Sequence record: OQ938541.1
Length of the DNA: 64,000 nucleotides
Reading direction: 5' to 3' (one strand)
From: Escherichia phage vB_EcoP_PE006
Below the pieces are notes generated by a model. That model had not been told where the DNA came from, made no database searches, and was given only the letters and a program-made list of their open reading frames with translations. The translations under genes were made by a program, and so were the position numbers. Within the stretch, counting starts at the first letter, position 1; each line of letters starts with the position of its first letter. Positions 54,118-55,473 of the stretch are shown here, piece after piece.

Positions 54118-55473
54118 TTAGTTATTTGTTTCCATGTCAAAAGAGATTCCACGACCCGCTTCATCGGCAAACCGAACTGTACGGGTTTGAGGCTGCAATA
54201 CTTCAGGGTTGTTAGCAACAAACCGATCAGCGAGACTGCGGCTGACGGTCTCAGCTAATTCACCATGAGAAGGGATATTAAGATCGGCGAGATTATCAAC
54301 CACATCTTGGGCCACGTCTTCATCAATCCATACAGCCCTAACAGGTGCGTTGAAACTCTGACCAGAGAACTGGTGACGGCTAACAGTCAAACCATTTGAT
54401 TGATCATTAGAACGTCTAGACAACCACTGCTCAAATGAATCGCCAGTAACACCAAGAGCTTCTTCAAAAGATGTTCTACGAGTAGAGCTTAGATTTCGTG
54501 ACTCTTGTGCTCGGCGCATTGCAGGGGCTACAAACACCCCTTCAATTGCATTGTGCCGATTAGGTTCATCTTCTCGACCAAGGAGATCTCCTCCTGTATT
54601 AGTTGTTAAGTTTGTCAATCCTTCAGACCAATACGCACGAATCTGGCTAGAGCCATGAACACTTGACATTAACTGAATCTCTTCGTAAGGTATTCCAAAG
54701 AATCGACTCATGTCTCGGTTAACACAATATTGAGCACTTGTTGTATCCTCGATAAGAGCAACCTGACCATGTTCGTTGACCAGATGACTAACCGGCTGAG
54801 GTGTGGGAAGGTATCGAGTTTGGGCCATATATTGATATGCAACAGATGGAGCTGAGAATCTTAACACTTGTGAATTAGGCCACTTTTTGTGAACGTATCT
54901 GATTTCACGACTAGAAACAACCACAGGGCAAGGAGCGGTCATAGCTAAATATCCATGAGGAGTCATGAATAAATTGTCAAGAGTCATCGCACCACGACAC
55001 ATCATAGGAAAATTATCCAATACCTCTTCAATAGAAGTAGGATAATTAAACATGAATTGGATACGAACCCCATTCCACTGAAATTCAATGATATCAGTGA
55101 ATGTTAATTGAGAACCCCCAGCATAGGATTCGTCTGTAGATTCAGCAAGAAGGGATGCATACTCGATATCTTGTGATTCAAGCCACTCTTTCACATTGCT
55201 TTCAATCTCTCGTCCAAGAGCTTGCCAACGATCAACTGTAGTGAAAGTATTTTGAGTCCCTGGCGTCTGTCCTCTGACAATGAAGATATCAATATCGTGA
55301 GGTGCTGTGTTATTAAGCACGGCATCACGAACAGCCCCACCAGTAATGATGGGACAGATACTGTCTGGAACCAAGTTGTTGTTAATCAGCTGTTCAATGA
55401 AATGACGACCAACAGTAATATCAGGTTGTTGAGCAACCTTATCTTCAATTTGGTTAATCGGGATAACAATCAT
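54118..55473 (-). CDS. nucleotidyltransferase (Pol-beta superfamily; CCA-adding / poly(A)-polymerase-like head), start at internal Met
   Basis: ITGGAVRDAVLNNTAPHDIDIFI matches the GG.VRD...D.D signature; start moved to MIVIPINQ... (1 nt after the upstream stop) to avoid a 56-nt overlap. Confidence 0.55.
   Translation of the reverse strand: MIVIPINQIEDKVAQQPDITVGRHFIEQLINNNLVPDSICPIITGGAVRDAVLNNTAPHDIDIFIVRGQTPGTQNTFTTVDRWQALGREIESNVKEWLESQDIEYASLLAESTDESYAGGSQLTFTDIIEFQWNGVRIQFMFNYPTSIEEVLDNFPMMCRGAMTLDNLFMTPHGYLAMTAPCPVVVSSREIRYVHKKWPNSQVLRFSAPSVAYQYMAQTRYLPTPQPVSHLVNEHGQVALIEDTTSAQYCVNRDMSRFFGIPYEEIQLMSSVHGSSQIRAYWSEGLTNLTTNTGGDLLGREDEPNRHNAIEGVFVAPAMRRAQESRNLSSTRRTSFEEALGVTGDSFEQWLSRRSNDQSNGLTVSRHQFSGQSFNAPVRAVWIDEDVAQDVVDNLADLNIPSHGELAETVSRSLADRFVANNPEVLQPQTRTVRFADEAGRGISFDMETNN

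Follow-up and report, generated by a model that had tools for sequence, protein, structure and literature searches.

Introduction

Gad2 of the Bacillus phage SPbetaL7 is an experimentally verified anti-Gabija protein with a predicted nucleotidyltransferase (NTase) domain, and its knockout renders the phage Gabija-sensitive (Yirmiya et al., bioRxiv 10.1101/2023.05.01.538930). Small NTases are encoded by T7-like phages as well; such a gene was reported for 37 of 46 Pectobacterium Autographiviridae and for only 60 of more than 500 others, its role being left open (PMC7693777). Here, we provide a computational analysis of a 451-residue protein, referred to as the NTase in the following, which is encoded on the minus strand within a stretch of 64,000 nucleotides, the window, of Escherichia phage vB_EcoP_PE006 (OQ938541.1). 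Our data suggest the NTase to be a remote relative of Gad2 with an intact catalytic core, which diverges far faster than its operon neighbours, and we tentatively propose a role in counter-defence or host takeover.

The source phage is a phiEco32-like Escherichia coli podophage of the genus Kuravirus, subfamily Gordonclarkvirinae. The approximately 5 kb around the NTase gene show 96% DNA identity to the phages 172-1 and NJ01, and 98 phage records were matched. The gene and its label 'nucleotidyltransferase' are already present in the databases and the bare observation is known; what appears to be new in the searchable literature is the loss of the determinants of CCA-adding enzymes, the placement together with Gad2 and the small NTases of T7-like phages, and the outlier evolutionary rate.

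A predicted class II-type head domain with conserved catalytic residues

The coding sequence (CDS) and the elements of its folded part are the following, positions referring to the window:

54118..55473, minus strand: complete CDS of the NTase, 451 aa, with the stop codon at 54118-54120, as given in the list of open reading frames (ORFs)
54679..55473, minus strand: folded NTase domain, about residues 1-265, with the head of the class II fold and its neck-like helices
55282..55341, minus strand: motif A, G45-G46-x-x-R49-D50 ... D60-x-D62-I-F64, predicted to bind the nucleoside triphosphate and to provide two metal-binding carboxylates
55036..55101, minus strand: beta strands 125-133 (FTDIIEFQW, including D127) and 136-146 (VRIQFMF..., with Q139 and M141 invariant) of the AlphaFold 2 model
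54991..55014, minus strand: N154-F155-P156-M-M-C159-R-G161 at the motif B position, from the family alignment and from hhalign against the small NTases and Gad2
54877..54909, minus strand: helix R189-E190-x-x-Y193-x-x-K196-K197-W-P199 occupying the motif D region, modelled as helix 188-197 and aligned to Gad2 by hhalign

A preceding sequence-only reading of this gene had placed its N-terminus in the Pol-beta superfamily, with a head domain of the type found in CCA-adding enzymes as well as poly(A) polymerases (PAPs), on account of a GG.VRD...DIDIF signature. Both the ORF and the signature are real (GGAVRD, residues 45-50; DIDIF, residues 60-64), and structure prediction, Foldseek and the alignment of motif A bear out the assignment at the level of the fold. 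Residues 1-260 are modelled by AlphaFold with an alignment of 25 sequences at a predicted local distance difference test (pLDDT) of 88.6 and a predicted template modelling score (pTM) of 0.84; a full-length model made with eight close sequences is poor (pLDDT 44). The best 45 Foldseek matches in the PDB are all class II tRNA nucleotidyltransferases or PAPs, the nearest solved structures being CCA-, CC- and A-adding enzymes and PAP I, and class II enzymes clearly outscore MNT, CD-NTase and OAS proteins in the structure comparison. Judged by the model, the assignment to the class II-type head-domain fold is solid. The head-domain-only protein NP_344798.1 (PDB 2la3) and the toxin NTases MenT/AbiEii scored lower in structure and showed no detectable relation in sequence; these are bacterial proteins or toxin-antitoxin components, whereas the NTase is encoded in a phage replication operon.

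Conservation was assessed in an alignment of 25 divergent homologues sharing 21-33% identity with the window protein. Invariant in all of them are G45, G46, R49, D50, D60, D62, F64, Y117, I128, Q139, P156, Y193 and K197. The catalytic carboxylates, the loss of which had been set beforehand as the refuting observation, are thus retained, with D60 and D62 being invariant. Position 127 is D or E in 25/25 sequences, and by the topology of the Pol-beta superfamily D127 is likely the third carboxylate; E130, considered for the same role, was ruled out as its position varies (E/D/Q/N/S). The motif D-region helix follows the consensus RDxxYxxKKxP, in which Y193 and K197 are invariant and position 190 is always D or E. 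As judged from this conservation, the NTase is a minimal Pol-beta-superfamily nucleotidyltransferase of about 260 residues with its catalytic residues intact, and it is probably catalytically active.

Relatives among phage nucleotidyltransferases

The NTase matches PHROG 12715, 'nucleotidyltransferase', a small family found in phiEco32-like phages only, end to end (residues 1-451, E 2.2e-257), and orthologues of 79-96% identity are found in 68 phage records. Among isolated phages the gene is confined to 96 records, all from Escherichia or Shigella phages, and these represent every Gordonclarkvirinae record that matched the protein query. Members of the PHROG family are 274-482 aa long and can be aligned over the first 200-260 residues. 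A word-indexed protein search returned close relatives alone, and the wider family became visible only when 1.84 billion representative proteins were searched exhaustively with a profile, which yielded 37 clusters at E ≤ 0.001 and 30 at E ≤ 1e-10, the weakest of the 37 including repeat proteins as well as proteins from adjacent families of small NTases. In phage XT32 (OR757435.1, 710-2052) the NTase is annotated as two ORFs of 89 and 358 aa, split near residue 90, which is due to a sequencing error or else to a frameshift that is tolerated; no other disrupted copy was noticed in the 96 matching records, which were not each individually inspected.

The weak family-profile matches P0079-P0082 are proteins of 213-247 aa belonging to PHROG 1614, whose members come from phages, mostly T7-like, of Ralstonia, Pectobacterium, Pseudomonas, Aeromonas, Vibrio and Caulobacter. 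PHROG 1614 is recovered by the NTase both in hmmscan (E 5.8e-8) and in Foldseek searches of BFVD (E 1e-5 to 1e-8). Profile-profile alignments with hhalign, whose E-values refer to single pairwise comparisons, connect the NTase family to the small NTases with a probability of 98.9% (E 3.7e-17, 145 columns), to six published Gad2 homologues with 93.0% (E 3.4e-7, 127 columns) and to the Gad2 set supplemented with the bridging protein P0080 with 97.1% (E 4.9e-11, up to 136 columns). The small NTases in turn align to Gad2 with 98.4% and to Cca/PcnB with 96.4%, the latter alignment extending over the motif D helix as well. Both partners had to be entered as alignments, as hhalign against the single sequences of E. 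coli Cca and Gad2 recovered motif A only. The PHROG assignments interlock in the same manner: Gad2 matches PHROGs 18122, 4400 and 1614, and P0080 and P0082 match PHROGs 1614, 18122 (the Gad2 family) and 12715 (the family of the window NTase). Independently of these, the precomputed Pfam annotation of close homologues lists PF26128, 'Gad2', flagged as faint.

The small NTases (e.g. DU_RP_I gp11, Pectobacterium PP47 gp28 and that of Pseudomonas phage LKD16) are the closest sequence relatives outside the family. They are annotated as 'tRNA nucleotidyltransferase-like' and comprise 167-250 aa without a long tail, compared to 451 aa of the window NTase. They retain an FDxN(I/V) element with a motif B-like Asp (F119-D120 invariant) and a motif D-like helix alignable to Cca/PcnB, whereas the NTase family does not. 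Their distribution is patchy and host-linked, in contrast to the NTase, which is present in all 96 matched Gordonclarkvirinae records, and they resemble accessory genes tied to particular niches. In Autographiviridae the small NTase gene is located between the T7-type primase/helicase and the DNA polymerase, as in Ralstonia phage DU_RP_I, and in Vibrio phage VP506 a homologue directly follows ThyX and precedes the primase-helicase.

Like the NTase, Gad2 is encoded by a phage, measures about 400 aa and carries a minimal NTase domain at its N-terminus, which shows the same series of motifs (IIAGGA...NDVDIYF, LKLQMIH, FDFTVCMGAF, LLRVQKY). Common to both are the GG loop, DxD-I-[FY]F, an [IL]Q[LM]I strand, an F-x...C element and the RxxxY helix (R151...Y155 in Gad2); motif A of the NTase aligns to GGAVRD...DxD in CCA-adding enzymes and to AGGA...DVDIYF in Gad2. 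The two differ in that Gad2 has GGAITS in place of GGAVRD and FDF in place of the invariant F-P, and they share only 16-20% identity over the aligned core. Gad2 resides in an anti-defence locus of a temperate Bacillus phage, whereas a virulent coliphage carries the NTase within its replication operon. According to these profile comparisons, the NTase family forms one branch within a radiation of minimal class II-like NTases that is restricted to phages and includes Gad2, its relation to Gad2 being one of superfamily membership, not of orthology, and its link to true CCA enzymes running only through the small NTases.

Rapid divergence within a conserved replication operon

The NTase gene is embedded in a replication operon with the following members:

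56023-57813, minus strand: primase/helicase, upstream of the exonuclease subunit gene
55475..56029, minus strand: 3'-5' exonuclease subunit of DNA polymerase A (PF01612, E 1e-8; PHROG 38876 and 403)
53575..54108, minus strand: dCTP deaminase (PF22769, E 3.5e-34; TIGR02274 equivalog above cut-off)

The NTase starts with an ATG at 55473, one base past the exonuclease TAA, and the same Met start is found in every homologue. The dCTP deaminase starts 9 nt beyond the NTase stop and is preceded by an AAGGAA ribosome-binding site. Given these 1-base and 9-nt spacings and the AAGGAA site, the exonuclease, NTase and dCTP deaminase genes are almost certainly co-transcribed and translationally coupled. 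The gene order helicase-exonuclease-NTase-dCTP deaminase is kept in Bas91, SU10, MN05, KBNP1711, ECBP2 and three metagenomic lineages.

Evolutionary rates were compared in nine genomes of Kuravirus and in five lineages at a greater distance, dN/dS denoting the ratio of non-synonymous to synonymous substitution rates:

Within Kuravirus, mean amino acid identity: helicase 99.5%, exonuclease 97.1%, dCTP deaminase 83.2% (two alleles), NTase domain 87.8%, NTase tail 82.6%
Within Kuravirus, dN/dS: helicase 0.023, exonuclease 0.085, dCTP deaminase 0.067, NTase domain 0.13, NTase tail 0.31
Between genus-level lineages, amino acid identity: helicase 76-95%, exonuclease 57-86%, dCTP deaminase 74-97%, NTase domain 25-41%
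Between genus-level lineages, identity of the NTase tail to that of the window protein: 17-28%

By these comparisons the NTase diverges about ten times faster than its operon neighbours between genus-level lineages, while being under purifying selection. A second clade (L002, L011 and L012) independently shows 93-94% identity for the helicase compared to 35-41% for the NTase. The groupings in the NTase tree are congruent with those of the helicase, and the overall pattern resembles that of a gene inherited vertically and evolving persistently fast, not that of one horizontal replacement. The dCTP deaminase occurs in two Kuravirus alleles. It is 98-100% identical in most genomes, whereas SR02 and a metagenomic phage carry a version of 184 aa with an identity of only 58%, which, next to 98-100% identical helicases, indicates a mosaic replacement of this neighbouring gene.

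In the related Aeromonas phage APT65 the slot between exonuclease and dCTP deaminase holds an unrelated hypothetical protein of 131 aa (L006, 7531-7926); a truncated NTase at this position was ruled out (hhalign probability 0.3%). The deaminase can therefore do without the NTase and the slot is variable, which suggests the exonuclease-to-deaminase position being an exchangeable accessory slot.

The C-terminal tail of the protein comprises the following parts:

54121..54678, minus strand: C-terminal tail, residues 266-451, 186 aa
54616..54630, minus strand: short aromatic motif W282-S-E-G-L286, [WYF][ST]xG[LR]-like, 15-25 residues past the folded domain
54259-54438, minus strand: hypervariable, indel-rich block of the tail, residues 346-405, from the per-block conservation within Kuravirus
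54121-54258, minus strand: acidic block of the tail, residues 406-451, moderately conserved in Kuravirus

A long unassigned C-terminal region had been pointed out by the sequence-only reading; it is present and residues 266-451 show no similarity to Pfam, PDB or Gad2, and it is not a shared domain but lineage-specific, indel-rich and apparently largely disordered. The low pLDDT in the shallow-alignment model is weak evidence for disorder because residues 172-260 also score low in that model and gain confidence once the alignment is deepened. In composition the tail is hydrophilic (40% S/T/N/Q/G/P, grand average of hydropathy -0.61), its last 81 aa have an isoelectric point of 4.2, and its length varies from 15 to 226 aa across the PHROG 12715 family. 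About residues 256-345 are well conserved within Kuravirus. The aligned aromatic motif was recognised by eye in 22/25 family members, a loose regular expression also matching 22/25, at another site in some of them, and it is the sole tail element of the shortest members (~275 aa). With its dN/dS of 0.31, the tail is best described from the alignments as a loosely constrained, lineage-specific extension.

A candidate function in counter-defence or host takeover

By analogy with Gad2, the closest relative to have been tested, we favour, with somewhat less than even confidence, a model according to which the NTase is an active enzyme transferring nucleoside monophosphates (NMPs) in counter-defence or host takeover. 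Three observations fit this reading: the gene diverges rapidly, its sister family has a host-linked distribution, and the Gordonclarkvirinae resist defences in an unexplained manner; these phages are described in PMC11990801 as being unusually resistant to the defence systems tested, without a known mechanism. In this model D60, D62 and D/E127 would coordinate Mg2+, the nucleoside triphosphate would be bound by the GGxxRD loop together with the RDxxYxxKK helix, and the NMP would be transferred to a hydroxyl on a target other than the standard tRNA acceptor end. Candidate targets would be a DNA or RNA 3' end recognised by host sensors, or a host protein with a role in immunity or housekeeping, and the variable tail may provide targeting or docking. 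The enzyme would thus serve a function in counter-defence or host takeover expressed alongside replication, being neither an activity of tRNA CCA synthesis nor of the core replisome. The sequence-only reading had considered that the protein counters tRNA-targeting host defences; the remote homology to Gad2 and the fast evolution lend support to the defence part of this idea, the route via tRNA being weakly supported.

Several points weigh against a counter-defence role. The link to Gad2 is remote, with 16-20% identity and E-values derived from single pairwise comparisons, the C-terminal region of Gad2 (~230-400) has no counterpart in the NTase tail (BLASTP E ≥ 10), and a shared function is not a given within a superfamily which also connects to genuine CCA-adding enzymes. 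The presence of the gene in all 96 matched isolates, its purifying selection and its tight coupling to replication fit a core function as well as an anti-defence function, and the fast divergence could simply reflect low structural constraint. A PADLOC scan of the NTase returned no match, the resistance passages of PMC11990801 name only restriction-modification (RM) systems and Fun/Z and not Gabija, and our literature search found neither experimental work on the NTase family nor a mechanism for Gad2.

A more far-reaching version of the counter-defence model, which we regard as unlikely, identifies the NTase as the factor behind the broad resistance of the Gordonclarkvirinae, in that it would, coupled to replication, nucleotidylylate ends or nicks of the phage DNA or nuclease sensors of the OLD/Gabija and other types. 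If this were true, several immune systems would be blinded at once, the hypervariable tail and surfaces would track host targets, and the mechanism of Gad2-type enzymes would be revealed as well.

Comparison with CCA-adding enzymes and RNA 3' ends as possible substrates

The alternative faring best, which we nevertheless consider unlikely, is a nucleotidyltransferase acting on the 3' ends of tRNA or other RNA, either repairing CCA ends damaged by toxins of the host or tailing RNAs in a PAP-like manner. It is favoured by the closest solved structures all being CCA-, CC- or A-adding enzymes and PAP I, by the common motif A, by the alignment of the bridging small NTases to Cca/PcnB across the motif D region and by the GenBank records, which already label homologues as 'class II CCA-adding enzyme domain'. 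Furthermore, host tRNA nucleotidyltransferase matters for phage reproduction according to a paper cited in PMC7693777.

The specific signatures of CCA-adding enzymes are missing in the NTase family. The match to the Pfam head domain PF01743 (PolyA_pol) remains sub-threshold (E 8.5e-4, 20.1 bits compared to a cut-off of 23), and the hidden Markov model search suggested by the sequence-only reading leads to PHROG 12715 over the full length and not to this Pfam family; the NCBIfam scan of the NTase gave no CCA or PcnB match. A PDB sequence search with the single protein gave no match, and motif A of a CCA enzyme was all that profile searches of the PDB recovered (E 0.9, then 0.0015). Likewise, hhalign of the NTase family against an alignment made up of E. 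coli Cca, PcnB and the CCA enzyme of a phage aligned only the 24 columns of motif A with a probability of 29.5%.

The RRD motif of class II enzymes recognises the triphosphate and the ribose, being a sensor of the ribose 2'-OH. At this motif B position (RRDFTINA in CCA enzymes, FDFTVC in Gad2), as assigned by transitive profile alignments, the NTase family has N-F-P-M-M-C-R-G, the Asp being replaced by an invariant Pro. EDxxR of motif D, through which class II CCA enzymes template CTP and ATP by amino acids, is also absent, with RDxxYxxKKxP in its place and no conserved ED pair, motif E of the class II CCA enzymes is lacking, and no tRNA-binding body and tail domains are detectable past residue 265. 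Because RRD, EDxxR and the body/tail domains are missing and only motif A aligns to Cca/PcnB, we conclude from these alignments that the NTase is not a canonical CCA-adding enzyme, and the tRNA 3'-end repair envisaged by the sequence-only reading is weakly supported.

The genomic setting offers little to an RNA-directed function, with no tRNA genes within the 64-kb window and neither RNA ligase nor polynucleotide kinase, i.e. RNA-repair genes, among the NTase neighbours. Cca is already supplied by the host, and a tenfold faster divergence is unexpected for an enzyme acting on the invariant CCA end.

Neighbouring genes, restriction sites and a possible DNA modification

Downstream of the dCTP deaminase follow three small paralogous ORFs, a Dps-like DNA-binding protein, a thioredoxin, ThyX and then a polymerase subunit. 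On the other side, 5' of the replication genes, a cluster of peptide- and metabolite-modifying enzymes covers about 58000-64000 on the minus strand, as seen in the window and in the Bas91 annotation. The features with assigned positions are:

52959-53574, minus strand: three tandem small paralogous ORFs (69, 69 and 65 aa), directly 3' of the dCTP deaminase, all ending in ..V[YH]Y
50224-50880, minus strand: ThyX (TIGR02170 equivalog)
44580-46301, minus strand: putative polymerase subunit, matching Bas91_0047 in position and size
58033-58452, minus strand: gamma-glutamyl cyclotransferase, part of the modifying-enzyme cluster
59154-60350, minus strand: ATP-grasp RimK-like protein, part of the same cluster
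60794-62485, minus strand: GlmS-like amidotransferase, part of the same cluster

The family A DNA polymerase is split, exonuclease and polymerase subunits being encoded about 9 kb apart with nucleotide-metabolism and small accessory genes between them. The copy number of the small paralogous ORFs varies, with four in SU10 and MN05 and one in Bas93, and judged by these sequences the ORFs at 52959-53574 form a variable mini-array adjoining the NTase operon. The modifying-enzyme cluster also contains an amidoligase and a COOH-NH2 ligase, and it is partly present in the phages APT65 (Aeromonas) and VP506 (Vibrio). The T7 gp4-like primase/helicase ends with ...NQADGASPW (56023-56080, minus strand), an acidic tail with a terminal aromatic residue resembling the polymerase-docking tails of T7 gp4 and gp2.5.

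The window shows a marked avoidance of palindromic sites. Palindromic hexamers amount to 683 compared to 1073 expected from composition, 13 of them being absent altogether, including the PstI, SacI, KpnI and SmaI sites; GATC occurs 128 times compared to 311 expected, and CCWGG only 7 times. Retained are 28 EcoRV, 34 HindIII and 8 EcoRI sites. These site counts are relevant to the resistance of the phages to RM systems, which is unexplained.

These observations touch on a further, quite unlikely alternative, in which the NTase is an enzyme of DNA modification or the nucleotide pool working together with the dCTP deaminase, as Humolli et al. 2025 proposed for the Gordonclarkvirinae; it would produce or introduce a non-canonical nucleotide guarding the phage DNA from restriction. 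Synteny with the dCTP deaminase is strict across the family, even in members of 27-35% identity, and the VP506 homologue directly follows ThyX. According to PMC11990801, the phages resist RM systems in vivo without a known mechanism. The window keeps 28 EcoRV and 8 EcoRI sites. In view of the role of RRD as 2'-OH sensor, its loss could relax the discrimination against deoxynucleoside triphosphates. On the other hand, dCTP deaminase and ThyX are ordinary equivalogs which together account for normal dTMP synthesis, and DNA containing deoxyuridine was judged unlikely for this reason. APT65 has the dCTP deaminase without the NTase, the avoidance of palindromes, GATC and CCWGG suggests DNA exposed to restriction and not globally modified, and an enzyme with a fixed nucleotide as its substrate would not be expected at 25-41% identity while its neighbours are at 76-97%. 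No DNA hypermodification pathway is known to employ a class II Pol-beta NTase.

Replisome and signalling alternatives

An accessory role at the replisome is improbable. The NTase would in this case act as a template-independent terminal transferase on primers, nicks or genome ends, its tail docking to a T7-type polymerase or helicase. Such docking could be read from the 9/25 family members that end in W, F or Y; these members are non-independent, the enrichment is weak (~36% compared to roughly 18% expected, a rough estimate), and the terminal aromatic residue is absent in the window protein, to which a T7-like docking motif consequently does not apply. Furthermore, the core replisome parts of the operon are 76-99% conserved compared to 25-41% for the NTase, APT65 replicates with an unrelated gene in the slot, and the gene is lacking in most T7-like phages (PMC7693777).

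Least probable of all are a protein nucleotidylyltransferase (an AMPylase, MNT/GlnE-like) or a producer of small nucleotide signals, either of them acting on a protein of host or phage and unlinked to immunity, or a largely structural protein merely keeping the motifs, since class II enzymes score clearly above MNT, CD-NTase and OAS and PADLOC gives no match, and the invariant catalytic residues together with a dN/dS of 0.13 speak against a pseudo-enzyme.

Implications

As a summary of what these data mean for annotation, the label 'CCA-adding enzyme domain' carried by homologues should not be taken as tRNA repair. In the Gordonclarkvirinae, which are common, broad-host-range coliphages considered for therapy, the replication operon is very conserved apart from the NTase, and none of its members evolves as fast. 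The placement of the NTase in the Gad2 superfamily makes it a testable candidate for anti-defence in E. coli, for which the phages Bas86-93 of the BASEL collection, infecting K-12 with restored O-antigen, are at hand. The NTase family and the small NTases of T7-like phages furthermore provide comparative material for solving the mechanism of Gad2-type enzymes.

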